This document shows, one piece after another, positions 20,739 to 64,000 of a stretch of 64,000 bases of DNA. The stretch covers positions 88,575,191 through 88,639,190 of the forward strand of contig JASCQW010000081.1 in NCBI GenBank assembly GCA_030264375.1, given 5' to 3'. The notes under the pieces were generated by a model, which saw only the letters and a program-made list of their open reading frames with translations, was not told the DNA's origin and ran no database searches. The DNA comes from Carcharhinus longimanus. Taxonomy: Eukaryota. The number at the start of each line of letters is the position of its first letter. Within the stretch, counting starts at the first letter, position 1. A program made the translations under genes and the position numbers.

Positions 20739-20802
20739 ATGGAATCCCTTGATAGTTTTGGGAAAGTGTACTACACGACTCTTGCTGTCATTGGTGTTCC
20801 TG
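20739..20802 (+). CDS. GPR139-like: GPR139-like GPCR gene A, exon 1 (MESLDSFGKVYYTTLAVIGVP, phase-1 donor)
   Basis: ATG at 20739 and donor G|GTGCGT at 20803. Splices in frame to the acceptor at 24903 (G+TT = Val). Homologous to exon 1 of gene C. Confidence 0.88.
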
Positions 20803-22819
20803 GTGCGTAGCTACGACAAGTGAATTTAAGTAAATGTGTGCATGTGAGCTGGTTTCTGGTTTTACACTGTGCCTCATAATATTACTTGCTGATCTAGTGT
20901 TCTCCATCATACTACCATCAGTTAATTCTCAGATGGAAAGTATTACTGGCGTATCTGTCACTGTAGAATTGAGTGTGGGATAGTAGCTGATTCATTTTTT
21001 GTATCATTGTTTGAGGTGACTGATCTTTCTCTCCACTTTGTGGATTTGTCTTTGTAGTTATCAAAGTAAACAATGGTAACACTTTTCCAGTTGTTTCATT
21101 ATATGTTTCCAGTGAAATGTATTGCTATTGATCTATCTATTTCAACTTACATGAAGAGAAATAGATCTCCACTATTTAATAGCAGATAAGGAGTGGATAA
21201 CATATTTAATTCATTCCACCAGTCTGTTTAATGAATTGCTATTACAGTGACCGTGCAAAGTTGCACATTCTCACATGTTTTTGTGTGCTTTCTCCGGGTG
21301 CTCCATTTTTCATCTGATTTGATTTATTCTTGTTAGATGCATTTGGAAACGATGTAAAGTATTGCCTGTTACACAGACAAAATACAACATTCATAGAGTG
21401 CATAGGGGGGAAGGAAAGGAGTGGGTGTTGCATATAGTCTTGTCTTAACAGCTAGGTTGCAGAGAAAGAAAAGCTTAATATATGGTAGTTCCACTCAAAA
21501 GTCTGATTATGTGATGCTCAATTGTCCTTAGCGTCCAAAGATGGATTGGCCATTGTTAATGGGGTTAAGGGAAAAGGGCAGTAGGATGGGGGATGAGGTG
21601 TTGCGGGTGTAAGATGTTCCATCAGAGAGTCTGCATAGACTCAATGGGCTGAAGTGTCTACTTCTGCGCTGGAAGAATTTTGGGGTTCTAATAATTATGA
21701 TTGCTGTAAACACTGTGCGAATCAATTCAGTACTGGTTATTTTTTTCCAACAAAGTTCTGTGCTTATGAGTATTGTATTTGATAGTCTGTATGTTGCATC
21801 GGGCACTGGGTATCCTTTCCTGTAATGGATTAATTGACAGACCAGTAATTATCTATTTAACATATGTAACCAACACCAATCTCCATCCTTAATGAGGTGT
21901 TTTCTCTCAGGACGAGCAAAGAAATAGACCTTCATAGCACAGATATCAGCCCGAGGACAGTAAGAATTAACAAATTATAGTGCTAATATTTTCTGCAATA
22001 TTATGAAAGAACTGTTGACTTCTTAAATAAAAATCTAGCAACATAGGACAACATTACATGTACAGCTCTGAAACTGTCCGTCCAATTGGTTTCAGTCTGT
22101 ATTTATGCCCCATAAGATGGGCCAAATGGTCCTTAATCCCTCTTAATCTAACTCAATTAGTATTTTATTGAATGTCAACAATGCAGAGGAGGCCACTCGG
22201 TCCATCTTCAGATGATTCATCTCATTTGCTTTCCAACTTATAAATTCCATTTCAGGGGAATGGCCGTTCAGCAATCTTCACTACACACTGACTCCCCCAG
22301 TTCACTTGATTAGGTTTTCATCCACCCTACTCCCTGGACTTGCATCATTTTCTTTCTCCCTGTTTCTCAGTCTCGGATTCAGCTTTGATGATGATGACAC
22401 ATTCCTCACCTTGAACATTCAATGGGCCTCCCTTTGCTTTTCCACCAGCTCCAGTGTAATTCCACCACCAAACTCATCTTCGTCTCCTCCCCTGCCTTCA
22501 CCCCTTGCAAGACATTGGCCCGCTCTTCCATCACACCCTCTAACCATGCTCATTCCCTACAGACCTCATCATCCAAACACACAGGTGCATCACCGAACCT
22601 TTCACCTTCTTACTTCATAAAATGTATACCCATGGAGAAACAATTTATTTGTATTCCTTTGATGCTAACAGCTGTATTCCCTGCTCATGATGTGTTCCCT
22701 TTTTCATGGGAAACAGCAAACGCAGTTTGAGGGATCACTTTGAAGGACATTCCCATCCAGGCTTAAAGTGTGACTCACAGCATTTGGTCACATCACTATT
22801 TGAATTCTGAGACTAGTTA

Positions 22820-23290
22820 TTCTCCGGTGCTTGTCACATGTATTAGTATACAGTGGAAAGTATTTATCCTTACGTAGTATACAGAAAAAGCATACCGTTC
22901 ATGGACTACAGAGGGGAGAAGGAAAAGAGTTGGTGCATAATATAAGTTATAGCTAGCTAAGTCGGGAAAGATCAGCTTAATAGGTCCATTCAAAAATGTG
23001 GTGGCAGCAGGGACAAGATTTGGTTGGTATGTGACCTCAGACCTTAGTATCTTTTTCCTGATGTAAGAAGGTGGAAGAGAGTGTATCTAGGGTGTGTGGC
23101 GTCCTTGATTTTGCTGGATGTTTTTCTGAGACAGCGGGAAGCATGGAGGGAGTCTGTAGTGGGAGGATTCTTTGCCTGATGGATTGGACTTCACTGGGCT
23201 TTTTAATTTATTGCGGTCTTGATCAGAGTAGGGGCCATACCAAGCTGTGATACATCCAGAAAGGATGCTTTTTGTGTTGCTCCACAAACA
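22820..23290 (-). mobile_element. Rex1/Babar-like LINE 3' fragment in the gene A intron
   Basis: Minus ORF SILSGCITAWYGPYSDQDRNKL, matching the 3' end of the element at 32167-33641. Confidence 0.7.
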
Positions 23291-23715
23291 GAGAACATAT
23301 CGACCAGACCAAGTAAGAGTGGCAGTATTCCTACCCTAAAGGATATTAATGAAGCAGATGTGTTTCAACAACGATCGGTTGCAGTTTCTTGGTCACCATC
23401 ACTGAGACCCTCTGAAACTCTATTCATATTCCACACCTATTACTGAGATTTATTATATTAGATATGCTCAAAATATTAGAGGAGCTGGATTGATGATCAA
23501 GATGGGGGCTCATTCGTGGCACATGGACTATGGGCTGGAAAACATCCATAACTATCTCCATCGTGTTCCCTAGCTATTGGACACATCTTCACCAGCCACT
23601 TCCTAAGCACTTACTCCTTCTTTGGAACCATCTTCAGTTTTTTTCATTGCACCATTCACATTACACCATTATAACTTTGTCATTCAATCAATGCTGCTCT
23701 CCAGTCAATCAAAGA

Positions 23716-24045
23716 TCATAGAATCATAGAACCGTAGAATCCATGCTGAAGAAGGCCATTCTGCCAAGCAAGCCTGTACCGACAGCAATCCCACCCAAGA
23801 CCTTTGCAGGTAACCCCACGTATTTAACTTGCCAATCTCCCTGACACTAAGGGTCTCTTTCCCACGGCCTATCAACCTAACAAACACATCAATGGCGTGT
23901 GGGAGGAAACTGGAGCACCCAGAGGAAGTCCATGCAGACAGGGGGAGAATGTGAAAGCACCACACAGTCACTTGAGGCCTGAATTGAATCCCAATCGCTG
24001 GTGCTGTGCAATAGCTGTGCTAGCCACTGTGCCACCGTGCCACCC
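23716..24045 (-). mobile_element. HE1-type V-SINE in the gene A intron
   Basis: TCATAGAATCATAGAA tail and GGGAGGAAACTGGAGCACCCAGAGGAAG...CCACTGTGCCACCGTGCCACCC head on the reverse strand. Confidence 0.85.
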
Positions 24046-24264
24046 AGCTTCCCCTCTGTTCTATCCTCCCTATATTTCATATTTCCCTGGCTCGCTAATT
24101 GCTTGGAAACCCTATAATTTCTAACTGCCAGTGAAAGATAATCGACCTGAAGTGTTAACTCTAGTTTTATATTCACGCATGCTGCCTGGTCCAAGGAATA
24201 CTTTAGGTATTTCGCTTTCATTTATACATTTATTCAGTCACTTCATTTTACTTAGGTGATGAGA

Positions 24265-24602
24265 AGGTGTGATGTTGTCACTGGACCAGAGACCAGTTAG
24301 AATCCTGCCATCATAGATGATGGAATTTGACTTCAAGAAATATCCGGCATGAAAAGTGTAATGATAACCATGAAAAGATTGTGTTCAGAAAAAAAAGCAT
24401 CTGGTCCCCTTATGTCCTTTATGGGAAGAAATCTGTTGTCTTTACTTGGTTGAACATATATAACGCCAGCATTGCAGTAATGTTGTTGACTCTTAAAATG
24501 CTCTCAGATGTGGCCTATCAAAGTGTCAAGTTCAAGGGCAATTAGTGATGGGCAATAAATGCTAACCCAGTAAATAATGCTCTCATCCCATGAATGAATA
24601 AG
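24265..24602 (+). mobile_element. Deu-domain SINE (SacSINE1-like)
   Basis: Core ATCTGGTCCCCTTATGTCCTTTATGGGAAGAAATCTG, tail GGCAATTAGTGATGGGCAATAAATGC...CCCATGAATGAAT. Further copies at ~30.7-31.0, ~41.2-41.45 and ~52.15-52.5 kb. Confidence 0.7.
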
Positions 24603-24902: not shown

Positions 24903-25813
24903 TTAATCTAATAGCGATTTTGATCCTGTCCCGGGGAAAATGTGGCCTCTCCACCTGCACCACTCGCTACCTGGTCTCTATGGCAGCAGCGGATCTACTG
25001 GTCATTATCACTGCGGTGATACTGTATCGGATTGGTTCCTATTATTTTGCAGCATCTTTCCTGGAAATCACCCCCGTGTGTAGTATTACCTTCATTCTGC
25101 TTTATGCAGCTGCGGAATGTTCTGTCTGGTTCACGGTCATGTTCTCATTTGATCGATTTGTCGTCATTTGTTGTCAGAAGTTGAAGATAAAGTACTGCAC
25201 TGAGAAAACAGCAGCTGTGGTTCTAACAACAACTTGCATTCTGCTCTGTTTAAAAGATATTCCCATGTACTTTAGATTTGAACCTGGAGAGATAATTGAT
25301 AATGTTCCCTGGTTCTGTATTGAAAAGTCAAATTATTATACCGATCCTGCATGGGTGGCATATGGTTGGCTTGATAAAATCTTAAACCCATTGATGCCAT
25401 ATGTTTTAATTCTGTTGCTCAATGCTCTGACAGTCAGGTATATTCTGGTGACCAGTCAAGCCCGTAAGGCATTGAGGGGTCAGAACAAGGGAGAAAATGG
25501 CAGTGACCCAGAGATGGAGTGCAGAAGGAAATCTATGATCTTACTCTTCACCATATCTGGCAGCTTTATACTTTTATGGTTATTGTATGTTATACATTTC
25601 TTGTATTATATTATTATAGGAATTAACCATGTGTATTACAGTGATCTGATATACATCCTTGCAGATGTGGGAGTTATGCTTCTGAATTTAAATTGCTGTA
25701 CAAATGCATTTATTTATGGTGTAACTCAGCCCAAGTTTCGGGAACAGTTCAAGAGTGCGGTGAAGTATCCATTTACATCCATTATTCAACGACTTAATAA
25801 ACAAAACAATTAA
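24903..25813 (+). CDS. GPR139-like: GPR139-like class A GPCR gene A, exon 2 (end of TM1 to C-terminus); spliced protein 324 aa
   Basis: Acceptor TTTCTTTTGCAG at 24891-24902 and an uninterrupted frame to TAA. Motifs MAAADLL (TM2), CSVWFTVMFSFDRF (TM3), PWFC (ECL2), NPLMPY (TM5), RRKSMILLFTISGSF (TM6), LNCCTNAFIY (TM7) match the GPR139/GPR142 family pattern. Confidence 0.93.
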
Positions 25814-30469: not shown

Positions 30470-33400
30470 AGAGCAGGATTTCAGTAACTCCGCTCACTCC
30501 TTTGCTGTATCTGCACTCCCACTGATTTGCGATCAGAATTCGCTNNNNNNNNNNNNNNNNNNNNNNNNNNNNNNNNNNNNNNNNNNNNNNNNNNNNNNNN
30601 NNNNNNNNNNNNNNNNNNNNNNNNNNNNNNNNNNNNNNNNNNNNGTATGTAGCTTGATACAAAATAAAACCCTCTCTGTCATCCTGACAGTCACTGGCAG
30701 ATCGGAGCATGCATTGGCACAGTGGCATTGTCACTGCACAATTAATCAGGAGACTTCTTGCAATAGTCTGGTAAAGCCGGGTTTGAATCCTACTGTGCCG
30801 TATGGTGCATTGGAAATTTGCTATCACAATATGGAGATAAACATTTAATGGTAGCCATGAATCAATCGATGGTCAAAAAAATCCAACTGGGTCATGACTG
30901 CCATTCAGGGAAGGAAATCTGCCATCTCATTTGGTCTGGCTGACATATAACTCTAGACCCAAAGCAATGAAATTGATTCTTAACCAATTTGTGAGTACAA
31001 TTAATTGGCTTGTCCTTGTCACATTTTTTTGGAATGTTACAGGTGCCAGTTTATAAAGACAACTTCAAGTCAAAAGATAGCTTTTGGAGTTAGACAACTT
31101 CTCCAACACATTATACACTTTCTGTCTCAAAAGCTTTAACCATCCATCAGCAGGATTTGGCCAACTCCCTGCCCATAATACTTCAAGTCTGAGCCCTGAG
31201 CTCTCAAGGCTGTGGACAATCTAAGAAGCTTATTGTTCACTTGATCACACCTTCACTTTCAGACTCTGCCCCTGTTGAGTTATTCATCCTAACTCAAAAC
31301 TACACTCCACACCAAGCAGTGCTCTCAATAAGAAGGTTCCAAGCAACATGAGGGTGAGTCTTCCGCTGTGTTGTCATGGGTTGTCTCATCCAGTGTCAAG
31401 GCATCAATTTGATCAGAGTGTTTGGCAGACAAGCTTGACTTTATTTGGGCAATGGCTGAATACACTGTGACACACTGAGCAAGAATCTGTAAACAGATTG
31501 CTATGTGATTGCAACAGAGAACAGGGTTCAACAACAAACTGCTGTGATGGGATTGACACACGTCTCCCTACCCCTTGTTCCTGCAGAAGGATGATCCCAA
31601 TATTCCAATATGTTTCTGAAACTAAGATTGTCATTCTTAGGTTTGGAACACTGTAGAGCTAGAGCCTCCAGATCATCAACGGTGCTGAATAGCAGAGATC
31701 AGGAAGCAGTTAATCAGGAGCAAGTAAGCCAATGCTTGCAGTCCAGGGCCAGATCTAATTCCAACTCTCCCATGTGTGCTGAGACCAAGCCATTTCATCA
31801 AGTGATTGTTTGAGACCTGGTTGATTAACCAGTTCTTTAAGCTTTGACATGTACACAATGGCAGCAGGCGCTTGGCTAAATCCACAAGTACATGGGACTT
31901 GATCATGGGGCCACTGAACAGTGGTAATTACTGGCAACATTAAGACCAGCCGCAGCAGTATGAAATGAAGTCAGTGGCATTGAGGAGTTATATAGCTTGA
32001 CAGAGCAGAGCGATAGCAGAAATCCTAGGAAGCATGTCAGATGTTCAACAAAGGAGACCAAAGGAGATCATTGGCTTGGGCTCAGTAATCCCCATTAGCC
32101 AGACTGTGCGATTAAGACTATCTATGGGGCTGCTTTCAAAGATCTTCCGTGGGAATAATTTAAATTTTCGTTTGATTTGATTTGATTTATTATTGTCACA
32201 TATATTAACGAACAATATTGTTTCTTGCGCGCTATACAGACAAAACATACTGTTCATAGAGAAGGAAATAACAGAGTGCAGAATGTAGTGTTGCATTCAT
32301 AGCTAGGGTGTAGAGAAAGATCAACTTAATGCAAGGTAAGTCCATTCAAAAGTCTGACACCAGCAGGGAAAAGACTGTTCTTGAGTCAGTTGGTACGTGA
32401 TCTTAGAATTTTGTATCTTTTTCCCAAAGGAAGAAGGTGGAAGGGAGCATGCCCAACGTATGTGGGATCCTTAAAAATGCTGGCTGCTTTGCTGAAGCTT
32501 CGGGAAGAGTAGACAGAGTCAATGGATGGGAGGCTGGTTTGCATAATGGATTGGGCTACATTCATGACATTTTGTGGTTTCTTGCAGTCTTGGGCAGAGC
32601 AGGAGCCATACCAAGCTATGAGACAATCAGAAATAAAGCTGTCTATAGTGCATTTGTAAAAGTTGGTGAGAGTTGAGGCTGACATGCCACATTTGCTTCG
32701 GCTTCTGAGAAAGTGGAGGCGTTGGTGGGCTTTCTTAACTATAGTGTTAGTATGGAGGGACCAGGACAGGTGATCTGGACACTAAAAAAACTTGAAGCTC
32801 TTGACAGTTTCTACTTTGTCCCCATTGATGTAAACGGGGGCATGTTCTCCTTTACGCTTCCTGAAGTCAATGGCAATTGCCTTCATTTTGTTGACATTGA
32901 GAGAGAGATTATTGTTGCCACACCAGTTCACCAGATTTTCTATCTCATTTAGTGTACTCTGTCTCATCATTGTTTGAGATCCAACCCAACACAGTGGTGT
33001 CATCAACAAACTTGAAAATCGAATTGGAGGGGAATTTGCCACAAGTCATAGGTCTACAAAGACTATAGTAGGGGGCTGTGAACACAGCCTTGTAGGGCAC
33101 TGGTATTGAGAACAATCATGGAGGAAGTGTTGTTGCCTTACTGATTGTGGTTTGTGAGTTAGGAAGTTCAGGATCCAGTCACAGAGGGAGGTGCTGAGGC
33201 CCAGACCATCGAGTTTGGAGATGAGTTTTGTGGCAATAATAGTGTTGACGGCTGAGCTGCAGTCAATAAATAGGATTCTGATACAGATGTCCTTGTTACC
33301 TAAGTGTTTCAGGGTTGAGTGCAGGACGTCTGCTATAGACCTGTCGCAGCAGTAGGCAAACTGTAATGGATCAGGTAGTCCAGGAGGCTGGAATTGATTT

Positions 33401-33800
33401 GTGCCATGATCAACCTTTCGAAGCATTTCATTATGATGGATGTCACAGCCATTGGCCGATTGGCATTAAGGCACACTGCTTGGTCTTTTTCAGGCACTGG
33501 GATGATGTTCATTGTCTTGAAGCAGAGAGGGGCCTCAGATTGTTCTAAAGAGAGGATGAAGATATCTGTGAAACCTCTGCCAGCTGATCTGCGCAGGATC
33601 TGAATGTTCATTCAGGTACTCAATCTGGTCCAGTTGCTTGCTAAATTCATCCAAACTGCAAATATTAATGAGTTTTTATACAGGTCACATTGTTCGTTAG
33701 AATGTTAACAATATATCAAACAAGTTATATATTTATTTCTATTCATTCAAGGGATAGTGGCATCGATGGCTGAACAAACATTTACTCTCCATCCCTAATT
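30470..33800. repeat. Segmental duplication block, paralogous to about 41020-42860
   Basis: Shared runs such as CTCAAAACTACACTCCACAC and GAGACCTGGTTGATTAACCAGTTCTTTAAGCT in collinear order. Confidence 0.85.
32167..33641 (-). mobile_element. Rex1/Babar-like LINE, 5'-truncated, with TAAATT target-site duplication
   Basis: RT pieces PLCFKTMNIIPVPEK...[23 protein letters not shown] and [16 protein letters not shown]. (TTTGA)n tail. TAAATT at 32161-32166 and 33642-33647, with an empty site in the paralog at about 42690. Confidence 0.9.
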
Positions 33801-43858: not shown

Positions 43859-45261
43859 GTGATTCCAAATAAACAGTTGGGCTTTAACCTGAAGTGGTGA
43901 GACTTCTTACTGTGACCACCTCATTCCAACATTGACATCTCCACATCAGAGAATATTTTGACAGGAAGAATAGGGAGCTTTTTTCATACTTGGACGTTGC
44001 AAGTTTCTGCGGCTTCAATGTACAAATTGATCTTGGAGAACAAATACATCAAAAGTTGTAGCATCATTTAGCAAGCCCATAAAACAAACAAAGCAAGCAT
44101 GGAAGACAGAACTGAAAAGTAGAGAAGTTATGTTCAGACCATATCCAAGATTGTTTGGACCACGCTTAAAGTGCTAAATAAGACATCTCACAACACAAGG
44201 TTAAAGTCCAACAGGTTTATTTGGAAGCATGATCTTTCTGAACGCTGCCCCTTGAAGGAGGAGTGCTGTTGTGAGACTTCTTACTCTGCTCACCCCAGTC
44301 CAATGCCAGCATCTCCACATCCAGTGTTAAGAGTAGCGAGTACAAAGTGGCAGACTACTGTGAGAAACTCTTGGTGCCATGTGATGAAGAAAATGCCGAG
44401 GGCATGGAGAAGGTGCAGAAAAGATTTCCAGAGATTATTGCTGAAATCCGTGTGTGGATATTAGAAAGATTTTTGACAAGTTGGATCTTTGCTGTCTTGA
44501 TAAAATGGTGAATGATAGCAGTATTTAAAAGAGCAAAATGTTCAAAGATTCTGCTTCCAGTCCCCAAGTGTAACATTGATCACACGATTCATATCAACAA
44601 ATGTTCATCAGAAATCACCCCTATGGTGGTGGGATGTTCAAGGGTAGAATCAGAGCACCCCACACCCCCACCCCCCACCCCCACCATCCGGACAGCAGTC
44701 AAGCAGCGACCACCGTCACTCTTCAACAATCATTGATTTGATTCTCAACTCAGGAAGATAAACACAAATTAATAAAATTAATCATACATTTCCAAGTGGT
44801 TGCAAACGTTTTTTTCTGAACATTGATTTTTTTTTACCTTTTGGATACATTTTCTTGGTGTTCTGTTTGTTGGTCATTGCTGTCTCTCTCCCTCCAGCAT
44901 TGTTGGGGATTATTTGTGTCTGGACATGTCTGGCCCGGTGCTGTGGTGGGCGGCTGGGGACTAGAAGGAGGGATCAGAACTGGAACAGAATTGGATAGAA
45001 TTGAATCTGTGAAAATGGGTGGCTGCTCAGGTAAGCAAGGGTCACTTCCTGCTTGGTTTCCAATGGTAGCCAACATTGTTAACTGTTACCGGGCACTGAG
45101 TAGTGTCAGTAAGAGAGCCCTGAGGGGTGACACTTGCAAGTGGCTAAGCCAGACTGTGTTGTGGTAGGTGGGAGGGGAAGGGGGCTCAGCATATGAAGGT
45201 GGGGACTGATGTGGGAAGGGGGTCCAGGACTTCTTTCATTCAAAATGATTCTTAGCACAAT

Positions 45262-46202
45262 TCAGTTGATTGAAATATGGAGGGGGTTCTTTTTTTTGCT
45301 TTGTTCATTCATAAATTGAATAATTTGTGTAATTGGATATTTCACTAAACTCTTGAACTGCTCCCTGAAATTGGGTTGAATCACCCCATAAATAAATGTG
45401 TTTGTGCAGCAGTTTAATTCCACCAGCATAAATCCAACTTCCTCAAAGATATATAAAGAATCATTATAATATTTGGGATTATTTCTTGTAGTCATATAAT
45501 ATAGGAAGTTTATAACATATATAAGCCACAGAACTATGAAGCTGCCGGATATAGTGAAGAGTAAAAGCATAGACTTCCTTCTGCTCTCCATCTCTGGATC
45601 ACTGTGATTCTCTCTCTTGTTCTGACCCATCAGTCCCTTACGGATTTGACTGGTCACTAAAATGTATCTGACGGTCAGAGCATTGATCAACAGAATTAAA
45701 ATATATGGAAGCAATGGGGTTGAAACCTTATCAAACCAGTCAAATGCCACCCAAGCAGGATCAGTATAATAGCTTGGTTTATCCATACAGAACCAGGGAA
45801 CGTTGCCAATTATCTCTCCAGGTTCGATTGTAAAGTAAAAGGCAATGTATTTTAAACAGATCAGAATGCAGGTTGTTGATAGAATCAAAGTAGCAGTTTT
45901 CTTTGTGCAATATTTTGTTTTCAACTTCTGGCAACAGATGGCCACAAATCGATCAAAGGAGAACATGACAGTAAACCATGTGGAGCAGTTCGCAGCTGCA
46001 AAAATCAGGACAATGATAACACTACAGACAGGAGTGATGTCCAGAAAAGATCCTGGGAAATAAAAAGAACTAATTCGATACAGTAACACCTGAACGAAAA
46101 CAAACAGTAGATCTGCCAATGCCATGGCGAGCAAGTAACGAGTGGTGCAGATGGAGAGGCCACACATTCTCCGGGACAGGACAACAGTTGTCAGTAAATT
46201 GA
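45262..46202 (-). CDS. GPR139-like: GPR139-like class A GPCR gene C, exon 2; 334 aa if spliced to exon 1 at 50290-50353
   Basis: Acceptor CTCTCTTACAG|TC AAT TTA at 46203/46202 and an open frame to TGA. Motifs MALADLL, FSFDRFVAICCQKLK, PWFC, PLLPY and ELNCCTNTFIY. Confidence 0.93.
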
Positions 46203-46649
46203 CTGTAAGAGAGACAATGGAAAAGAAATAAGACGTTATTAACTAAACGTTCTTGGTGTGCGAAGTTATTCAGTGTGTGCATGATTTCACAACCCAAAAG
46301 AAGATTATTTGTCTGTGTGTGAGAGAGTGTGTGCTGTTCAGGGGATAATGATTAAGAAATGGCAATCCCATCTTCAAACTGCAGTCTGGGGATTATAAAG
46401 AGATTGGGTTAGAGAGAAGGAACAACAGTAAGTGTCAGTAAGAGAGCCCTGAGGGGTGACACTCACCAGTGGCCAAGCCAGACTGTATTGGGGTAGGTGG
46501 GGAGGGAAGGGGGCTCAGCATATAAAAGTGGGGACTGCTGTGGNNNNNNNNNNNNNNNNNNNNNNNNNNNNNNNNNNNNNNNNNNNNNNNNNNNNNNNNN
46601 NNNNNNNNNNNNNNNNNNNNNNNNNNNNNNNNNNNNNNNNNNNATCCAA

Positions 46650-49600
46650 TTGGGCAGTTAAGCAAACAATCACCATGATTGGATCTCTTGATGGCCTGGA
46701 GGAATTATTGGATCTATTGAGATCTGCCAATTGCGTTATTAAGTGGTAATTGGAGCCCCATGACTGAATGTCCTCTGGGGTTGTAATGGGATTGTGGTGA
46801 AACTGTGGGCTTTAATGCCATTTCAAGTTTTGTGCGGGCATTGCAATGGAACATCCTGGGAATAATCCCACAGCTCTGGGTTGTGGTGTATTTGGGGAGC
46901 CTGTCCTCAGATCCGTTGCAATTACAACCCCTGCCTCCCACCTAATGGTTTGTAGAAATGGTTGTAACTCGACTGCCAAGGTTGGAACGTATGTCAGGTC
47001 TTGGATCAGAAAACAACCTTTTTCCCTCACTATTCAGGCAAGGTGAAGGCTTGGAAGCAATCATTTGAATGTCAATAGTGAACTTATGCAGTCAGAAATG
47101 ACAGGGAAGGAAAAATGAAATTGATGAACTTCTCAATTCAACGTTAAACAATAGTGAATACATTGAAGGAAGAATCTTAATAATAATTAAATGTTGGTAA
47201 GGGAGGAAATATTTGATAATGAGAAGGTAAAACCTCAGTTGGAGGCTGAAATATCTGTTCATTAATAATAATCAAAATAGGCAATCGTGCCAGTGCTGCC
47301 CTGCTGTGTACCTCCCTGTAAACAGTTACCATCATCTTCTGTTGATGAAGTTCATAATGGAACAGGGCAGTACCAATATAAATAGTCAGCTGGCAGCAGA
47401 GAACTAAACTGTTGTGAAGAATATGAAGTGATGAAGCTTTTGTCTCGTAGATATCAGAGCATAGTCCTGAGGTAGATATTGATGCAAAGGGTCCTGAGGA
47501 GTGCAAAACAAAAACGCTCCATATGTCTCTTCTTTCAGCAATACCAATATATCCCATTTTATGCAACTATTAGAAAATATCACCCAGCAGCAAATATTTC
47601 CTCCATTGCCATCGGTTACATTCATGAAACAGCAGTTTCAGAAGAGAAATCTGCTGGATACAGTCCCGTTGGTGACTCAATCTGTACAATTCCGCAATGA
47701 TAAATACTCCCACTAATGCATGGTCACTGGAGTCAGGAGTTTCATTCCAGTTAGAAACCTGCACTCAGTACACTTCCACAGTTGAAGATACTCCCAGTAA
47801 TATATGGTTACTGGGGTCATGCGTTCCACTCCAGTTAGTCACCCACACAGTTCAGTTCTCTAGAGACACATTTCCCAATAATACATGTACACCAGTGTCA
47901 GTATTCTATTCCAGTTAAGACCCACACTATGAAACAGATACTCCCAGTAATACATGGTTGGGATCAGGCGTTACACTCTAGTTAGTGATGCATATGCAGT
48001 ACAATTTTTCTGTGACAGACACGCCCAGTAATACATGATCATGGGATCATGCATTCCAGAGTAGTTTGTGACCAACATGCAGTACAATTCTACAGTGAAA
48101 GAGACAAACAGTATACTGGCACTGGTGCCCATGTATTACTGGCAATAGTGTTACTGGAGAATTGACCACTGGGGGTCAAGTGGTCCATCTAGGTTAAGAT
48201 CCACACTCAATACAATTCTACAGTGAAAGATACCCCCAGTATTTGCTTCATGTTGTTAGTTCATGGCGCTAATATCTATTCTGTTTTGCAAAGTGAACGA
48301 TAATGAGCAATGGTTGTACTTAATGACCCTTGGGTTTGAACTACTCCAACCCTGGGGTAAGATGCCAATCAGATCCTTTGGAATCACCACTGCTCCAAAC
48401 TTTCCGGCTCCCCCCACCGCATCCCCCCCCCCCCCACCCCCCCCAATCTCCCTCAGCCTCCACAGCAATTGGACAGTTAATTCAATCCACACTGTGACTG
48501 GATCCCTTCATGCCCTGGGGGAATAATTGGATTACCCGAGGTTTGAAAATTACATTATAAAGTGGTAATCTGAGCCCCATGGCTGAGCCTCCTCTGGGGT
48601 TGGAATAAGGTTGGGATGACACTATGAGGTCCAGTACCAACTCAAGGTTTATTAAGATATCCTGACATGTTGGTTTTTCCGGGCATTGCATTGAAACACC
48701 CCGGGAAGAATCCCACACCCCTGGGTTAGTGATACATTTGGGAAGCCTGTCCTCAGGTCCTTCGCAACGTGGGTTTGTGGAGACAGTTGTAACTGGACTG
48801 TCTAGGTCAGAATGCATGCCAGGTCTTGGATCAGCAAACAGCATTTTTGCCCCACTATTCAGGCAGGAGAAGGGTTGGTAATAATCCTTTGAGTGTTGAT
48901 AATGAACTTATGCAGTCAGAGACAGCGGGGAAGGAAAATTGAACATTATGAACTTCACCAATTCAGTGTTCAACAATTGTGAATACCTTGGAGGAAAAAG
49001 TCTTCGTAATAATTAGAGGTTAGTAAGGGAGGAAAGATTTGATAAGGTGATAACAAGAAGGTAAAACCTCCATTGGAGGGTCATTAATAATCATCAGAAT
49101 AGTGAATAGTGCCAGTGCTGCCCTGCTGTGAACCTCTGAGTAAACAGTTACCATGAGATTTTGTCAATGCAGTTCAGGATGAAACAGAGCAGTGCCAATA
49201 AAAATAGTCAGCTGGCAGTACAGAACTAAAATGTTGCTAAAAAAAGTAAGATGATGAAGCCTTTTGTCTTGCAGACATCATGGCTTAGTCCTGATGTTAT
49301 TAATGATGCAAAGTATCTGAGGGGTGCAGCACATAAATACTACACATGTCTCTATCTCAGCAACACCAATGTTTTATACAAGTATAAGAAAATAGCACCC
49401 AACAGTAAAGATTTCCTCCATTGCCAGCGACAACATCTGTGAATCACAGAGACTGGAGAGGTTATTCATTGGATTGGAGAAATCAATCACCTAAAACAGC
49501 AGTTTCAAGAGAGAAACCGGTTAGTTCCATTCAGATGGGTAACCTAGTGAGTAAAATTCCACAATGGCAAATACATCCAGTAGTGCGTGGTCTCTGTCAT

Positions 49601-50110
49601 CAGGAGTTCCATTCGAGTTAGAGATCCGCACTCAGTACAATTCCAGAGTGAAAGATGCTCCCAGTGATACATGGTCAATGGGGTCAGGAGTTCCACTCCA
49701 ATCAGTGACCCACACAGTTCAATTCTCTAGTGACACATTTCCCAGTAATACATGGTCACCAGAGTCAGTATTCCATTCCATTTAAGACCCACAAGCTAAG
49801 ATAGATATTCACAGTAATACAGGGTTGGGATCAGGAGTTATACTCTAGTTAGTGATCCATATGCAGTACATTTCTTCAGTGACAGGCATGCCCTATAGTA
49901 TATAATCACTGGGATCATGTGCTCCTCTCCAGTTAGTGACCCATGCACAGTGAAATTCCACAGTGAATGAGACGCCAAGTAATTCATGATCATTGGGGTC
50001 ACGTACTACATTTCAGTTAAGAACCACCCTCAGTGACAAATGCTCCCAGTATTTGTTAGTTCACGGTGCTAACATCTAAGGTATTGTACAAAGTTTTCCA
50101 CTATGAGCAA
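46650..50110. repeat. Two tandem copies (~46650-48310 and ~48320-50110) of an intronic unit of about 1.7 kb; third copy at about 61780-63500
   Basis: Shared anchors GTGCCAGTGCTGCCCTGCTGTG (47288, 49109, 62524) and TGAACTTATGCAGTCAGA. Each unit ends in a ~81-84-bp tandem array. Confidence 0.88.
47705..48245. repeat. ~81-84-bp degenerate tandem repeat (CCCAGTAATACATGGTCACTGGGGTCAGGAGTTCCATTCCAGTTAG...); sister arrays at 49570-50050 and 62975-63430
   Basis: Unit starts at 47709, 47793 and 47874. Confidence 0.85.
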
Positions 50111-50380: not shown

Positions 50381-50445
50381 GAATTAAACTCTGAGTGATA
50401 CATCCTCAGAACCTTTCATTTATACCCCCATGGAATCCCCGCAGG
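50381..50445 (-). promoter_or_regulatory. Putative TATA promoter of gene C
   Basis: GTATAAAT at 50425-50418, about 65 nt before the ATG, followed by ACTCAGAGTTTAATTC, similar to gene A and relic D. Confidence 0.55.
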
Positions 50446-51359
50446 GAGAAGAGGGTTACATCAATCTACAAGTTGTTTTCATTAATTCTTAAGTAGCAGA
50501 AAAAAAAACAGACTTGGAAAGCAGAGTCAGGCCCCTGTTATTGCAAAATGTGTTTGCTATTGCAATCCCCTTGGAAAATCCTAAAATCCAAACAATTTTG
50601 ATAACACAAACTGGTTAAAGGAAATGGACACAGAAATTTCAAAGCATAAGGTACATGTCTTCAAACTCTATCAGTCTCATATCTAAAATTTATTGTTGTT
50701 TCACTGGTTTCCTTCATCTGATATGTTCATTCAGTCAAAATACTCCAAACTTTAGAATGTCAACTTTAGTCATTCGGTTTCAGCATTTAATAAATACAGT
50801 ACTCGAATACAGGGCTTGAATCTAATGCAGAACTCCAGCTAATATTGCTTCAATTTAACTGTGCGATTCAAACTGATAGGGCAGTTCAAAGTATACAACA
50901 ATCAAAATTACATTGGCCAGTCAAATCAGGACCACCTTTCAATGAATACAAACTGGGACATAACCTTAATCTGGTATATACTCGAGTATATTACTCTGGT
51001 AAGTTCCGCACACATGAGGATGGTCTCAACAGGGATCTTGGGTTCATGTCACACTATCTGTAACCCCCGCGACTTGCCTGGGTTTGCAAAACCTCACTTA
51101 CTGTACTGTCTGGAGACAATACACACCTCTTTAACCTGTGATCAGTGCTCCTTCCACACACATTGTCAGCCACTTTAGGACTNNNNNNNNNNNNNNNNNN
51201 NNNNNNNNNNNNNNNNNNNNNNNNNNNNNNNNNNNNNNNNNNNNNNNNNNNNNNNNNNNNNNNNNNNNNNNNNNNNNNNNNNTCGGTTGGACTGAAACCT
51301 GGTGTTGTCAGACTTTTTACTGTGTTTACCCCAGTCCAATGCCGGCATATCCATATCAT

Positions 51360-56219: not shown

Positions 56220-58990
56220 TACATTCTGACTCCTCAGACGCTGTCCACCATCTGCAAGGCACAAGTCAGGAATCTGATTGAACAATCTCCATTTGCCCAG
56301 ATGAAAGTGATTCCGCCAATGCTCAAGGAGTTCCACATAACACAAAATGTGACCCATTCAATCTCTCCTCACCAGTGCACGGTTACACCATGGTGTGTAC
56401 ATGTACAAGATGCACTGGAACAACTTTCATCTCTCTTTCCAAACCTGCGACCTTGACCATCTGGAATGAGAAGCCAGAAACTGCATGGAAATAAATCACC
56501 TTTCATACATCTCCAAACCACACACCATATGGATTGGGACCTATTTCACTGTTCGTATGGTCACTGCATTAGCATCCTGATACTCCCTGCCTCACAGTCA
56601 GTTAGACTGCAACAGCTCCAAAGTATGGCTCAACATCTCCTTCTATTGGGCAATAATTAATGGGCCTGTTACAGTGCGAAGTGATGTTTAGTTTGAGGTT
56701 CTGTATTATTCTCGGGGACAATATCGTCTGCAGTTGTAGAATCAGTTTGAAAATACATTGAATCAATTTCCCCACTTGAATTATTTAACAAATTGCAACA
56801 GTTGAAGAGGGCAGCTGCACCTAGGGCCACATTACTGCCACCCAGAGGGGAAATCTCAACTTCAGAATTCAATTCCTGACTGCCGGCAGCAGAGTGAGGT
56901 ACAATGAAGTGAAGGGGTGGCAGGGTAGCACAGTGGTTAGCACTGCTGCCTCACAGCACCAGAGATCCGGGTTCGATTTCTGGCTTGATCCACCACATGC
57001 GTAGAGTTTGTACTTTCTCCTCGGGTCTGTATGGGTTTCTCCCGGGTGCTCCGGTTTCCTCCCACAGTCCAAAGATGTGCGGGATAAGTTGATTGGTCAT
57101 GTAAAATGGCCACTTAGTGTCAGAGGCAATAGCAGGATAAATATGTGGGACTATGGGCTTAGGAGCCTGGTGGGATTTTGCAGACTCGATAGGCCGAATG
57201 GCCCCCTTCTGCACTGTAGGTATTCCTACCATGATCCTCCAAGGTGATTTTGATAAAGATGAGGGTGTGCATGTGTTCGGGGTGGTGGGGTTTGGGGAAA
57301 GGGAGTACGGCGCGGATGGTTAGAACTGGGATCATAGTCTGACAACAGGTATGCCAATTGTCAATGGAGTGAGGAAGAGAGTCTTCAGAAAGAAGGTGGT
57401 GACTTTTTTGTGCTCACAACCTCCAACGAGGCTGTGAAGGCTCAGTGGTTGAGTATGTTCAAAGCAGAGGCCCATAGATTACTAGGCCGAAATGACATCA
57501 AGCAATCTGAGTGTCATGCAGTAAGATGGAAGATCAGCCATTATCTAGTTTATTGGTGGACCAGGTTTGATGGGCCGAATGGCAGATCAGGCATGACGGG
57601 CTCATTGGCCTTTCCCTGCTCAAATCTTCCCATCTATGTGACTTAGAGGTGGAACTTGAGATCTTTACATGTTCAACACTGTTTCAAAATCAGTGAGCTT
57701 CGAATTTTCAGCAATTAATAAATGTAATCAAAGTTGCTCTATTTTTAGGATTTACCAAATAAGTTTCCCACAACAGTGATCGAACTCCGATGTTGTCATC
57801 TGTTTGTAACTTCATGGTCTCAGTGGAAATCCCACATTATATCGGTTTAATGTCCTGAACTGCATCAACTCAGAATTTAATTCCCAGAGATTGTCAAACA
57901 GTATGAAGGGACAGAGACAGGGAAGCTTTGAAACCCTTGCTCCAGTTTTCATCTGATTTGATTTATTTATGTCAAGTATATTGGGATATAATGTGTTGTT
58001 TCTTGCACGGTATACAGAAAAAGTATACCATTCATTGGGTGCATAGTGGAGGGAAAGGAAATATAGTCTTTTCGTAACAGTACAGTGTAGAGAAAGATTA
58101 GCTTAACATGTGGTGGGTCCATTCAAAAGTCTGATTATGGGGGTTGGTGATGCTTAATTGACCTTAGTGTCCAAAGATGTGCAGATTAGATAGATTAGAC
58201 ATTCTTAATGGGTTTAAGGGAAAAGGGCAGAGGATGAGGACTGGAAGATATTCCATCAGAGAGTCTGTACAGGCCCGATGGGTCGATTTGACTTCTTCTG
58301 CACTGGAGGGATTCTGTGATGCTAATAAGTACAGCTGCTGCAAACGTTGTGTGCTAATCATTATAGTGCTAATTATATTTTGCAACAATGTTCTGTGGTT
58401 ACAAGTGTTGTATTTTATTTTCTGTACTTTGAATGTGGCAGTGGGTATCCATTCCTGTGATGGATTAATTTGACACACCAGTAATTGTCTCTTTCAGACA
58501 TGCAGCCGACACCAATCTCCACCCTTTGAGGCATTTTCTCTCAAGACACGCATACATATAGGCTGTCAAAATACAGATGTCAGTCTGAGGACAATAAGCA
58601 TTACCAATATTACACTGTTAATAATTAGATGAATGGTAGTGCACTTCTTCATAAATAAGACATTTTAATATCTGCAAAATTATGAAAGAACTGTTGACTT
58701 CTTAAATAAAAATTCAGCTACTTAGAACAACATTGCATTTACAGCACTGAAACTGTCAAATTGCTTTCTGTCAATATTTATGCTCCACAAGATGGGCTGA
58801 ATGGCTCCGAATCCCTCCTAATCTAACCTGATTAGTAGTTTGTAGAATATCTTCAATGCAGAGGCCCAGATTCACATGATTCATCTCATTTGCTTCCCGA
58901 CTTATCTATCCCCATTTTAGAGGAATGGCTATTCACCAATCTTTACTACGTACTGACGTCCCCAACTCTCTTGATTAGGTTTGCTCCCAC
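56220..58990 (+). pseudogene. Relic D: paralog of the gene A upstream region and intron (19000-22330) with exon 1 deleted
   Basis: Collinear with gene A, including an HE1 SINE (56915-57232) and the promoter. ATG context mutated (AGCTTTGAAACCCTTG versus AGTATGGAATCCCTTG) and joined directly to the intron sequence CTCCAGTTTTCATCTGATTTG. Confidence 0.82.
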
Positions 58991-60389
58991 CCAACAAGGG
59001 CCTATTTCCACCCTATAAACCTCTCTGACTCGATGACTCTAATTGACATATTTGAAACAGCCTCATTGCCTCTCCTGCCTGTCAGTTTAGCTGAGAGGAA
59101 CTTTTTGCTTCATTTTCAGCTCTGACATTGGTGACTTGGCTTCCTTCCAATAATCAGAGAGCGAGTGCACAAGTCAGTTACCTACGATCTCTGCAGGGGT
59201 GATTGCTGCTGTTTTCCCTTCCTTCTCTGCCAAACACTTTGGCGCACTCAAACCTAGTCTGCACTGAATAGCTTTGCAGCTGAGTATCCCCATGTCTTGT
59301 GCATGCTTATAAAGTAGAGAACCCACAACAGGAGGCCGTAACTTGCAGGATGTGATTTGTACTGAGATGATAATCAGCTTCTATAATCTCCACAAGAGAG
59401 TACAGTTCCGAAATATATTGCTTTGTGTGTTTGGTATGACTCTTTCTGGAAAAATAATGTGGTATTCCAAATTCTTTTGGGACTGTGGGACATAAATTTC
59501 CCAGACAGCTCCTGAAACAAAATTCGAAGAATTTCCATCTTCGCTCATCTTTGACACAGATGTCATTGTTGAAAAACACAAGTCTTAATTAAAAGTTTGA
59601 TATGTTTGTTCATAACTTAAGGTTTTGACCTGTATCCTGACCATCTGTGTCATGAGAGAGCCATTCATTGACCATCTCCAACAAGAGAAAATCTAGCCAT
59701 CTTCTCTCAACTTCCACTGACATTACCACAGCCTAATAGTCAGCACCAACACCTTGTGGTGTGTGTGGGTGTTGTAGCAGTTAACATTGACCAGAAACTA
59801 GCTGGACAAGTTAAATAAGCACCGCAGTTACAAGCTTCTGTCAGAGGATGGGTGCCATGCAATGGGTAACTCTCCATCACAAAGCCCATCTACGATTTAC
59901 AAGGAACAAGCCAGGAGTGTGATGGGATTCTCAACACTTGTCTGACCGAATGATACTGAACCAACACTCAAGAAGCTGCAAACCATCCAGGGCAGCATAC
60001 TGTTCACCTACCTTACATACTCACTCCCTCCACCACCAGTGCACTGTGGCTGTATTGTGTACCATACACAAGATGTAATGCAGCTACAGCTCAAACCTCC
60101 TTTGACAGCACTTTCCAAATTTATGACACCTACCACCTGGAAGAACAAAGCTGTAGGTGTAGGAAACGGCACCACCTGCAGGTTCCACTCCAAGTCAGAC
60201 AGATTTGTGATTTGGGAACATATCACTGTGCCTTCATGACCATTGTGTCAAAACCATGGCACTCTCCCTCCCAAACAGTAGTGTGGGGGGAACATCTTAA
60301 CCAGATGCAGCATTTCAAGAAAACCAACGTCTCCCCCATTACATGAATCAATTAAAAGAGGCAATAATTTGGGTCACAATGTTAATTTG

Positions 60390-60880
60390 AGGTTGGAATT
60401 ACTCTGAGGGATTGTATTTATTAATGAACTGTATTAGTTTAAGAACAGTATCAATTTGAGTGTCTGTATTAGTTCAAGAGGATGCAGTTGTTTGAGGGAC
60501 TGAATTAGTTTGAGAGAATTTAAGAGTTGAGGGAATGTACCAGTTTGAGAGAATGCCTTAGTTTGAGGGACTGTTTCAGTTTGTGGGACTGCATCTGCTT
60601 GTGGGACTGCAACAGTTGTGGGATTGTAACAGTTTGAGAGAATATATTAGGTGAAGAGAATGCATTCATTTGAGGGACTGTATTAGTTTGAGTGATTATA
60701 ACAGTTGATGGATTGTACCAGTTTGAGAAGTTGTATTGTTGGATGGAATGGTACCAGTTTGGCGGCTGCATTAGTTTAATGGACAGCACCAGTTATAGTT
60801 TGTACCAATTTGAGAGAATCTGTTCATCTTGAGGGACTGTATCAATTTGAGGGACTGTATCAATTTGAGGAATTGTTTTC
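60390..60880. repeat. 19-bp degenerate minisatellite (GGGACTGTATTAGTTTGAG)
   Basis: About 25 diverged units. Confidence 0.85.
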
Positions 60881-60935
60881 TTTCAGAGAAAGTCCTCATC
60901 TGATTTATTGAGTGGACTGGTACGTGTTAAAAAAT

Positions 60936-61090
60936 GATGTGGAGATGCCGGCGTTGGACTGGTGTAAATGCAGTAAGCGGTCTCACAACACCAGGTTAAA
61001 GTCCAACAAGTTTATTTGATAGTAAAAATGACCCTTTTTACTATCAAATAAACTTGTTGGATTTTAACCTGGTGTTGTGAGACTTCTTAC
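60936..61090. mobile_element. PLE-derived fold-back element (48-bp inverted repeat)
   Basis: Arms 60981-61028 and 61035-61082 with one mismatch and a 6-nt loop. Confidence 0.75.
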
Positions 61091-61554
61091 GTGTTAAAGA
61101 AGGCAGCCACATCTCAAAGTGCAGCCACACATTCCTGAGAAGACAGCTTATATTTGAAATGGTAATTGCTGAATAAACACAGCAGAGAAAATGGTCATTG
61201 TAATATTGTGAGATCTGGGGAAGGACATGATGCTGTGAGACTTATCAACAACATTGCTTGGAGAATAGAACTTCCAATTATTACTCGGTGAATTAGTGTG
61301 ATTAAAACTGATCAGTCTTCAGTTTATCCCAATGTGATCTCAGATCTAAACATGGTCTTTCACAACAGGCAGTGAACTCAGCTGTTGCAAAATACTGACT
61401 TGTTTATTTTCAGAAACACATTTGAAAGATGTTGTAACTTCAATGCCCCCATGGAGATGTCACTGTGTATAAAAACAGTGAATATATCACACACGTATTG
61501 AATTCAGAGAGATTGCCTGTACCACCAAGGACAGATCACACCGTACAGAAAAAT

Positions 61555-61602
61555 ATGGAACCATTTCAAAGGATTCTAAAAATATACTACACAATTCTTG
61601 CT
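61555..61602 (+). CDS. GPR139-like: GPR139-like gene E exon 1, truncated by an assembly gap (MEPFQRILKIYYTILA...)
   Basis: Aligns with exon 1 of C (METFEMIRKIYYMILA) and A. TATA GTATAAAA at 61467. Confidence 0.82.
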
Positions 61603-61779
61603 NNNNNNNNNNNNNNNNNNNNNNNNNNNNNNNNNNNNNNNNNNNNNNNNNNNNNNNNNNNNNNNNNNNNNNNNNNNNNNNNNNNNNNNNNNNNNNNNNN
61701 NNTACAAGTGTTACTTTGGCCAGGCAAGTTTTTTTCCTGGTGATTCCACTTGAATACTCCCAGCTTTAGCAATCCATGG

Positions 61780-64000
61780 ACACTTGGGTTTGAGTTCCTC
61801 CAACAATTGGGTAAGATGCTTTTGGATCCTGCCCCCCACCCCGCCCTGCCACTGCAGTGTGCAGTTAATCCGATCCTCACTATGAGTGGATCTCTTCACG
61901 GTCTGGGAGGATTATTAGATCAACCGAGATCTGACAATTGTAGCATTAAGTGGTAATGGGAGCAACAGGTCTGAACCTCCTCTGGGGTTGCAATGAGACT
62001 GTGGTGAAACTGTGCGCATCAGATGTCACTTCAAGGTCTGTGAGGATATCCCGATGGGCTGATATTCCGGCAATAACAACGGAACACTTGCGGAACAGTC
62101 CCACACCCGGTGTGGTGCATTTGGGAAGCCTGCCCTCTGGTCTTTTGTAACTACATCAATTGCCTCCCACCCAGGGGTTTGTAAAAACGGTTGTAACTGG
62201 ACTGCCTAGATCAGAACGCACGGCAGGTCTTGGATTAGAAAACAACCTTTTTGCCCCACTATGAAAGCAGGGTGAAGGGCGGGTAGCAATCCTTTAAATG
62301 TCGGTAGTGAACTCATGCAGTCAGAGGTGACAGGGAAGGAGAATTGAAATTGATGAACTTCTCCAATTCAGCGTTAAACAACAGTGAATGCATTGAAGGA
62401 ACAATATTAATAACAATTAAATATGGGTAATTGAGCAGACATTGATAAAGTGATGATGTAAAGGTAAAACCTTAGTTGGAGGCTCAAATATCTGTTCATT
62501 AATAACCATCAGGATAGTGAATAGTGCCAGTGCTGCCCTGCTGTGAACCTCTCAGTAAACAGTTACCATGAGCTCTTGTTGATGCAGTTCAGAATGGAAC
62601 AGAGCAGTTAAAAATATAAATTGTCATCTGGCAGTATAGAACTAAAGTGTTGCTAGAAAAAAATGAGATGATGAAGCTTATTGCCTTGCAGAATCAGGGC
62701 ATAATCCTGACGTGGATATTGATGCAAAGTGTTCTGCAGAGTGCAGCACAAAAACACTCCACACGTCTCTTCTTTCAGCAATACCAATATATTCTCTGCA
62801 AGCAGAAGAAAATATCACCCAGCAGCAAAGTTGCCATCGATTACATTTGTGAATCACAGGGACGGCTCCATGGACTGGAGAGTTCATTCACCCAAAACAG
62901 CAGGTTCAAGGGAGAAACTGCTTGGTTCCACTCGGACAGGTAACCCACTCAGTATAATTCCACAATGACACTTACTCCCAGTAATGTGCGGTTACTGGCA
63001 TAAGGAGTTCCAATCCAGTTAGAGACCCACACTCAGTACAATTCCACAGTGAAAGTAATACTGGGGTCAGGCGCTTCACTTCAATTAGTTACCCACACAG
63101 CTCAATTCTCTAGTGACACATTTCCCCGTAATACAGGTCACCAGGGTCAGTATCCCATTCCAGTTAAGACCCACACTGTGAGAAAGATCGTCCCAGTAAT
63201 ACGTGGTTATGATCAGGTCTAGTTGGTGATCCATATGCAGTGCAGTTCTTCAGTGACAGGCATGCCCAATAAATAAAATCACTGGGATTGTGTGTTCCAC
63301 TCGTTAGTGACCTACATTCAGTGCAATTCTATAGTGAAAGAGATAACCAGTAATACCACTGGGGGTCAAGAGGTCCATTGTTAAGATCCATACTCGGTAC
63401 AATACTACAGTGACAGATACTCCCAGTATTTATTTCACTTTGCTATTTCACGATGCTAATATTTATTGTGTTGTACAATGTGTTCCACTATGAGCAATCA
63501 TAGAACGCAGAACATTACAGCGCAGTACAAACCCTTCGGCTCTCGATGTTGCGCCGATCTGTGAAACCAATCTAAAGCCTACCTAATCTACACTATTCCA
63601 ATATCATCCATATGTTTATCCAATGACCATTTAAATACCCTTAATGTTGGCATGACCACTACTGTTGCAGGCAAGGCATTCCATGCCCTTACTGCTCTCT
63701 GAGTAAAGAACCTACCTCTGACATCTGTCCTATGTCTATCACCCCTCAATTTAAAGTTATGTCGCCTCGTGCTAGCCATCACCATCCGAGGAAAAAGGCT
63801 CTCACTGTCCACGCTATCTAATCCTCTGATCATCTTTTAAAAGAATCACTCGGCATCTTACTTTCAGTTGAGGTAAAACAATAAAGCCAGAGTTGTGATT
63901 CAGGTCATTTGACTTAAGATATCATTGATTTTGTGCTTGTATAATGGTAACCATCAAATAAGCATAAAACCAGAGACAAACTCATACTGACAGATAACCA
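61780..64000 (-). other. Intron of a predicted sixth GPR139-like gene (F), paralogous to the gene C intron 48320-50265
   Basis: 63855-64000 matches 50122-50262, which in gene C lies about 30 bp from the exon 1 donor. Confidence 0.7.
63501..63843 (-). mobile_element. CR1 3' fragment with AATCA target-site duplication
   Basis: ORF MIRGLDSVDSESLFPR..FFTQRAVRAWNALP. AATCA at 63496-63500 and 63844-63848. Absent at the paralogous site near 50110. Confidence 0.88.

Follow-up and report, generated by a model that had tools for sequence, protein, structure and literature searches.

More than 400 copies of one receptor gene family in the genome of the shark Carcharhinus longimanus, a candidate chemosensory repertoire

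The receptor cluster in the window

The window analysed here, by which we mean the whole stretch of 64,000 nucleotides (contig JASCQW010000081.1 of assembly GCA_030264375.1; G000:C81:88575191-88639190 in our numbering), comes from the 2.68 Gb genome of the shark Carcharhinus longimanus and carries a cluster of two-exon class A G protein-coupled receptor (GPCR) genes and their relics. These belong to a family of more than 400 related gene copies in this one genome, which automatic annotation has wrongly labelled GPR139. The loci of the window, here called A to F, are as follows (nt, nucleotides; TM, transmembrane helix; O/E, Olf-1/EBF):

20630..20665, plus strand: promoter of gene A, with a TATA-like box at 20659 and, at 20630, an O/E-like site that departs from the published core by 1 mismatch
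20739..20802, plus strand: coding exon 1 of gene A, 64 nt, phase 1, GT donor
24903..25813, plus strand: exon 2 of gene A, open from TM1 to the stop codon; A encodes 324 amino acids
34691..35573, plus strand: exon 2 of B, a pseudogene with 75% nucleotide identity to A, 13 insertions or deletions relative to A and its acceptor kept
45262..46202, minus strand: exon 2 of gene C, open; C encodes 334 amino acids
50290..50353, minus strand: coding exon 1 of gene C, 64 nt, phase 1
50418..50447, minus strand: promoter of gene C, with an O/E-like site (2 mismatches) from 50447 and TATAAAT at 50424
56226..58995, plus strand: locus D, paralogous to A over its upstream region, promoter and intron, with a 549-nt deletion spanning exon 1
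61446..61602, plus strand: locus E, with an O/E-like site at 61446-61457 and TATA at 61468 in its promoter and an exon 1 that begins at 61555 and is interrupted by N at 61603
61858..64000, minus strand: locus F, its intron (61858-63997) paralogous to the C intron at 74-82%

An earlier, sequence-only reading of this DNA had described at least six copies in both orientations, and while the cluster is real, only A, B and C have an exon 2 in the window: tblastn returned just these three, and none was found inside the window for D, E or F. A and C, which had been called intact, do have open frames, with 7tm_1 as the only Pfam match of either protein, and the two exons of A flank a phase-1 intron of 4.1 kb. 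B, taken to be frameshifted, is indeed a decayed exon 2; no exon 1 was detected for it, and stretches of N lie upstream. The loss of exon 1 from D could be confirmed, the part at 57751-58995 corresponding to the promoter and intron of A, as could the truncation of E by a gap and of F by the window edge, the intact exon 1 of F beginning 90 nt past the window end. The exon 1 length of 64 nt in phase 1, given earlier for complete copies, holds for A and C but is a subfamily value, the commonest lengths elsewhere in the family being 67 and 70 nt. Two statements on the divergence of A and C had to be corrected: a recount gives 43 differences in the first 126 exon-2 residues instead of 37 (103 of 324 overall), and these are not confined to TM2, extracellular loop (ECL) 1, TM3 and TM4 but track the whole extracellular half, being densest in ECL3 (9 of 13) and amounting to 1-3 per 12-17 residues in the inner TM halves.

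Several duplications accompany these loci. A non-coding duplication (30475-32164 and 41025-42861, 73-80% identity) is similar at its 3' end to DNA found 1.3-1.7 kb ahead of a nearby family gene and may therefore be a seventh family relic. A 113-nt direct repeat (90%) stands on both sides of C exon 2 (45102-45214 and 46431-46543) and is a possible substrate for exon loss or duplication. The C intron (46647-49973) contains an internal 1.5-kb duplication (73%) and degenerate repeats of 81-83 nt, features that it has in common with the F intron.

Extent and descent of the family

With A exon 2 as genome query, 130 of 1193 candidates were scored and all 130 showed 52-100% identity. Exact DNA patterns written for two TM3 motifs matched 191 and 414 times in the genome, their reversed controls not once, and the motif matching 414 times is present in 90 of the 111 intact exon-2 copies that we collected. 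The surrounding 659 kb (17% N) hold 24 exon-2 loci: 14 have open frames of at least 308 amino acids, and the other 10 are either broken or interrupted by N. Intact frames contain 10 of the 12 motif matches in this region. This suggests about 400 intact exon-2 frames and many relics genome-wide, an estimate extrapolated from one cluster, in which an open exon 2 need not mean that the whole gene is intact and duplicate haplotypes may account for some of the small contigs. The large birth-and-death expansion proposed from the window is thus borne out. An assembly artefact was ruled out by the identities between paralogues, which range from 34 to 88%, with divergent subfamilies at a median of 50%. 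Of 43 clusters, 14 lie within 1 Mb of a scaffold end against 3.1 expected, a count that uses hand-picked positions on 22 scaffolds of known length, drawn from partial match lists. One very small scaffold of 5.9 Mb (C191) bears many family copies at 2.2-5.7 Mb, over half of its length.

The protein database holds 1880 relatives at E<=1e-10 among 3139 candidates; the best 120 of these all come from sharks, and 118 of them bear the name GPR139. Other members go by capa receptor-like, vasopressin V2 receptor-like, tachykinin receptor-like or uncharacterised, and such varied names hide the family further. Looking up 20 of 150 representatives (clustered at 50% identity), we found 11 of the 12 with at least 36% identity to come from sharks, two skates, a stingray and a chimaera. 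The expansion, or its seeds, therefore spans all cartilaginous fish lineages.

The label GPR139 itself goes back to a weak best match: human GPR139 is the closest sequence in the PDB (E 1.3e-9). The genome has a separate single GPR142 (L097, 92% identical to white shark GPR142) and a separate single GPR139 (L098), to which family members are 17-26% identical. It also has three further single genes, X1 (L100, G000:C27:20.41 Mb), X2 (L128, C146:3.2 Mb) and X3 (L129, C142:45.84 Mb), of which X1 is conserved in chimaera, rays, coelacanth, lungfish and ray-finned fishes. X2 forms a long branch, and the scaffold of X3 also carries family clusters at 42.4 and 47.4 Mb. In a tree of 61 rows, comprising 30 family rows from this genome and 6 from the database picked for spread (the trees hold no olfactory receptor (OR) or TAAR rows), the family is one clade (branch support 100/100), sister to X3 (97/83) and within a clade with X1 and X2 (99/98). 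GPR139 and GPR142 form a clade of their own (100/99) apart from the family, which is its sister among the vertebrate receptors tested, and a constraint uniting the family with GPR139/GPR142 is weakly rejected (approximately unbiased test, p=0.039). The closeness to GPR139 and GPR142 that had been read from the window finds no support, given the separate orthologues, the different lineage and this test; in a phylogeny of the kind proposed with that reading the family falls outside their clade. The idea that the copies are copies of GPR139 was rejected on the same evidence of single orthologues and tree position.

A second tree, of 39 rows, recovers a GPR210-related clade of 27 rows (100/97) in which the family together with a salamander gene is sister to the X3 group (96/93). 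This gene (cluster P0483), found in three genera of salamanders, is placed on a long branch as sister of the entire chondrichthyan family (100/100). By its position in the tree it may be the orthologue that survives in bony vertebrates, through which the ancestral function could be approached. Coelacanth and teleost genes fall with X3 in this tree, X3 grouping with coelacanth P0476 and X1 with coelacanth P0255. An amphioxus protein stands at the base of the whole GPR210-side group (95/88), which makes it likely, as judged from the tree, that GPR210-type receptors split from GPR139/GPR142 before the vertebrates arose.

Such fish and coelacanth genes were named GPR210A and B by Rinne et al. 2019 (PMC6504862), where GPR210 consists of three small sets in coelacanth, gar and teleosts and the dataset text names no cartilaginous fish. 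The UniProt identifiers of P0476 and P0255 are 1393 apart if one letter is unused (1433 if none is skipped), and the gap between the GPR210A and GPR210B identifiers of that paper is likewise 1393. The tentative match of X1 and X3 to GPR210A/B is inferred from taxa and accession offsets; the family branches from this fish orphan lineage, which is likely the one named GPR210. Its nearest relatives are the low-copy fish genes X3 (25-33% identity) and X1/X2, and it shares with X3 and the GPR210 group the phase-1 intron in TM1; the difference is that the family is a separate branch with hundreds of copies, whereas X3 stays one gene. The intron, placed before N1.50, is common to the family, shark GPR142 and X3, and an acceptor at this point is found in 76 unique intact copies (2 of 92 rows lack one). 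With GPR139/GPR142 the family thus has in common the position and phase of the intron (as in shark GPR142) and a mostly kept W6.48 and aromatic 3.33, but identity is about 21-23%, and most members have other residues at the equivalents of H187, N271 and P6.50.

The literature searched contains no account of the expansion, subscription papers and the catshark supplement lying outside that search. The main text of the catshark genome paper contains neither 'GPR' nor 'receptor 139', and a 2025 GPR139 review does not mention sharks. A whale shark paper (PMC8455134) reports a paucity of GPCRs, and its supplements hold no GPR139 entry and one GPR142 orthogroup line. The analysis also drew on PMC11979771, PMC8514136, PMC12208981, PMC3247230, PMC12294341, PMC6367278 and PMC4695389. 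The genes are already in NCBI under their automatic name, and specialists may have noticed them.

Promoters, selection and the ligand pocket

In order to characterise the promoters, we collected DNA upstream of about 70 exon-2 matches and from the local cluster, which yielded 61 family exon 1s (control 0). Sixty had usable upstream sequence; 52 of these were aligned on a TATA-like box and 8 lacked one. TATAWA occurs in 40 of the 60 upstream regions, against 11.4 in shuffles. A palindrome-like element lies 19-24 nt upstream of the TATA box and reads TCCCYNGRGA in the column tallies of the 52 promoters, as first scored with an EBF pattern. The tallies equal the core of the published Olf-1/EBF matrix, given as TCCCYNGRGA in Table 1 of PMC3247239. 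This core is present within 1 mismatch in 24 of 52 promoters against 0.38 in control windows (maximum 2), and within 2 mismatches in 41 of 52 against 3.5 (maximum 11). When the TATA box is not used as anchor, 30 of 60 regions have the core within 1 mismatch, compared with 0-4 of 56-60 in seven other windows. Neither subfamily group lacks the site (9 of 20 promoters in one, 15 of 32 in the other), and its window is 0.53 identical between distant subfamilies as against 0.42-0.45 in six flanking windows, which argues that the element is retained by selection and is not leftover similarity. The suggestion of a chemoreceptor-like family made from the window, where this signature had gone unnoticed, is backed by the O/E-like and TATA elements: O/E sites are a hallmark of mouse OR promoters, 78% of which are reported to have them, and of V1R promoters, with all 39 of those examined.

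Other motifs were compared with shuffles over the same 60 promoters. Homeodomain-like YTAATTR is present in 29 (14.2+-3.7 in shuffles) and TAATKR in 49 (37.7+-4.1). FOX-like and loose C/EBP-like patterns are enriched as well. The immune-type motifs ETS (14; 23.8 in shuffles), IRF (3; 2.1), NF-kB (1; 1.0), RUNX (13; 13.4) and octamer (2; 3.3) are not enriched among these promoters. Three further conserved elements stand around the TATA box: TCTGTTTGTT (FOX-like) is conserved 60-80 nt upstream, where TGTTTGT occurs in 16-18 of 52 promoters, TTGYAAC (RFX-half-site-like) lies 30-40 nt upstream in 14 of 52, and CTCAGAG is found near the likely start, 20-40 nt downstream, in 17 of 52.

A strict O/E-plus-TATA pattern was uninformative genome-wide (110 matches against 104 in the control), and an OMP profile, sought as positive control, matched neither in the shark genome nor in any control genome. 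The three V1R/ORA genes have no O/E-like site within 600 nt, at least two of them seeming to bear a 5' intron with the promoter out of view. The regions upstream of X3 and GPR142 contain no O/E-TATA pair, their promoter positions not having been located. In four of six sequencing runs the reads fall on the intron as on the exons, in the manner of DNA reads.

Selection was analysed over 111 genes with our own codon routines, in which branch proportions were kept fixed and gene conversion was not controlled for; models M7, M8 and M8a took the place of a grid omega (dN/dS) test that peaked at the edge of its scale range. Omega is 0.33 overall, 0.25 at inner and 0.52 at outer positions. M8 is preferred over M8a (likelihood ratio statistic 22.7) with 3.2% of sites at omega 1.34, and all 8 flagged sites are in the extracellular half, in ECL1, TM3 (3.29), ECL2 (four), the end of TM6 and ECL3. 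The signal is weaker in a subclade of 30 genes (M2a against M1a, p=0.039; M8 against M8a, p=0.008). Site models of this kind had been proposed with the sequence-only reading, and purifying selection with extracellular diversification is supported.

An AlphaFold2 model of a basking shark homologue (74% identical to A; mean predicted local distance difference score 80.5) shows seven helices with hardly any tail at the N-terminus, and ECL2 forms a beta-hairpin. Structural neighbours of the model are generic peptide receptors at 15-21% identity, and GPR139 is not among the rows listed. In 76 genes the cytoplasmic halves are conserved, including DRF, the TM5-intracellular loop 3-TM6 segment 'E..RRKS.LLF.IS' and helix 8, while entropy is 1.88 bits in the outer against 0.86 bits in the inner TM halves (p=3e-12), and pocket-facing positions have 2.28 against 1.71.

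Four residues are important for GPR139 activation, F109, H187, W241 and N271 (PMC5430874). In 111 genes, as mapped through shark GPR139 with residue numbering from our own alignment, the corresponding positions are 3.33 (Y46/F13/R13), 5.42 (D69/H21), 6.48 (W98/Y13) and 7.39 (F37/Y24/N13). Two of the four are replaced, H187 usually by Asp and N271 usually by Phe or Tyr, and aromatic amino-acid sensing is therefore not transferable from GPR139: the ligands earlier expected from GPR139/GPR142 lose their basis, and aromatic amino-acid receptors by descent were rejected as a candidate, also in view of the different lineage. Acidic residues are frequent at 3.37 (99 of 111), 5.42 (73), 5.39 (69) and 7.36 (58). 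By analogy with Asp5.42 of fish TAARs, which is reported to bind amines, the ligands are probably cationic, such as amines, basic amino acids or short basic peptides.

Weighing the readings, and further repeats of the window

We favour the reading, at a probability of roughly 0.55, that this several-hundred-copy family of two-exon class A GPCRs works as a chemosensory repertoire of olfactory or comparable sensory neurons. Its origin would be a receptor lineage of GPR210 type, already present in the ancestor of jawed vertebrates, that multiplied in cartilaginous fishes. With a compact O/E-TATA promoter on every copy, duplication in tandem and at chromosome ends could yield new, independently expressed receptors with a fixed signalling face and a pocket that drifts and is occasionally selected. 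EBF/Olf-1 would bind the O/E-like site and drive expression in sensory neurons, perhaps so sparsely that a cell has one receptor or a few. All members may feed into one G protein pathway (Gq or Go to phospholipase C and TRPC2), as the analogy with GPR139 and with the microvillous neurons of sharks suggests; catshark olfactory neurons are reported to be all microvillous and TRPC2- and Go-positive, which makes them the expected cell for expression of the family. Each receptor would likely be tuned to different water-borne, probably cationic, molecules. The bolder form, in which these hundreds of GPR210-derived receptors are the cartilaginous fishes' own main olfactory family, recruited independently from a neuropeptide-receptor lineage under Olf-1/EBF promoter logic, seems to us to fall somewhat short of an even chance.

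The likeness to the OR, TAAR, V1R/ORA, V2R/OlfC and FPR repertoires extends to clustered birth-and-death evolution, a short N-terminus, a variable outer pocket, the O/E-like and TATA promoter and chromosome-end clusters; the shark family differs in having a coding intron. Sequence kinship with any of these, or membership of OR, TAAR, V1R or V2R, finds no backing in the profiles, since Pfam gives 7tm_1 only for A and C and the V1R/ORA profile finds three genes in this genome, none from the family. The nematode srw family is a chemoreceptor expansion out of the FMRFamide/MIP-type receptor clade, the same as that of the shark family, and among the weak matches to the Srw profile (PF10324) 4 of 6 include family genes or GPR142; being an independent expansion in another phylum, it is an analogy and not a case of shared membership.

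Several observations weigh against a chemosensory repertoire. The exact O/E core is present in only 1 of 52 promoters and many have T for G at one core position, so that the factor may not be EBF, and the target window was picked after the sequences had been viewed. Positive selection is modest, reaching only p=0.039 by M2a against M1a in 30 genes, and its estimate comes from the codon code with the limits stated above. P6.50 is kept in 7 and P7.50 in 12 of 111 genes, and canonical activation is therefore not assured. No GPCR is among the 50 genes most specific to a catshark library of brain plus nose, a weak point as known V2Rs are missing too.

B cells also require EBF, as a title in the reference list of PMC3247239 indicates, and together with the loose C/EBP-like pattern, which is enriched (49 of 60 against 36.3+-4.2 in shuffles), this lends itself to receptors by which leukocytes or B cells would detect molecules released by microbes or by damage, and which pathogen pressure would have diversified as it has the formyl peptide receptors. 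Birth-and-death turnover with extracellular positive selection would suit such immune families as well; the absence of enrichment for ETS, IRF, NF-kB, RUNX and octamer motifs and a selection (omega 1.34 at 3% of sites) milder than expected where host and pathogen meet nevertheless make immune sensors unlikely in our view. Sensors of metabolites or peptides in other EBF- or FOX-positive cells, with skin or gill solitary chemosensory cells, gut endocrine cells, other neurons and gonad or sperm as candidates, are rather less improbable, although still clearly behind. The FOX-like element, the ECL2 hairpin of the predicted fold with peptide receptors as best structural matches, the invertebrate neuropeptide receptors in the wider clade and the reported expression of several catshark v2r genes outside the nose as well are all in keeping with them, but a few endogenous ligands hardly explain hundreds of diversified paralogues, and the octamer sites typical of tuft-type cells show no enrichment. 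That the expansion is largely non-adaptive, with subtelomeric duplication and drift leaving most copies redundant or barely expressed, would fit the broken loci near the window, the many clusters at scaffold ends and the possible duplicate haplotypes among small-contig matches. Against this stand the low omega at inner and outer positions, the divergent subfamilies kept intact, the promoter element conserved across them and the presence of the family in chimaera, skates, ray and sharks; we regard this as very improbable, and for the family as a whole it is already largely refuted.

Whatever their function, more than 400 copies under the label 'probable GPR139' change the GPCR inventory. Sharks have large olfactory organs and about 10-50 known olfactory receptor genes, which has been explained (PMC10116579) as a trade of discrimination for sensitivity; the counts were made with four known families as queries and only sequences clustering with these were kept, a procedure by which the shark family would be discarded. 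The paradox of shark smell is directly testable with existing catshark RNA-seq. If the bolder form of the chemosensory reading is true, the family would be a new vertebrate olfactory GPCR family about ten times the size of the known shark repertoire, and the view of sharks trading odour discrimination for sensitivity would be overturned.

The window further contains degenerate tandem arrays (1857-4774, 8169-8783 and 60421-60870) with units of 42-43 nt and 18/36/89 nt. Broken reverse-transcriptase fragments of long interspersed element type, judged by eye from translations, are located at 62-834, 6012-6957 and 32389-33465 (minus strand), one such fragment lying upstream of B exon 2. A 56-nt inverted repeat (60973-61090) is 95% complementary with a loop of 6 nt and is built from the end of a dispersed repeat.

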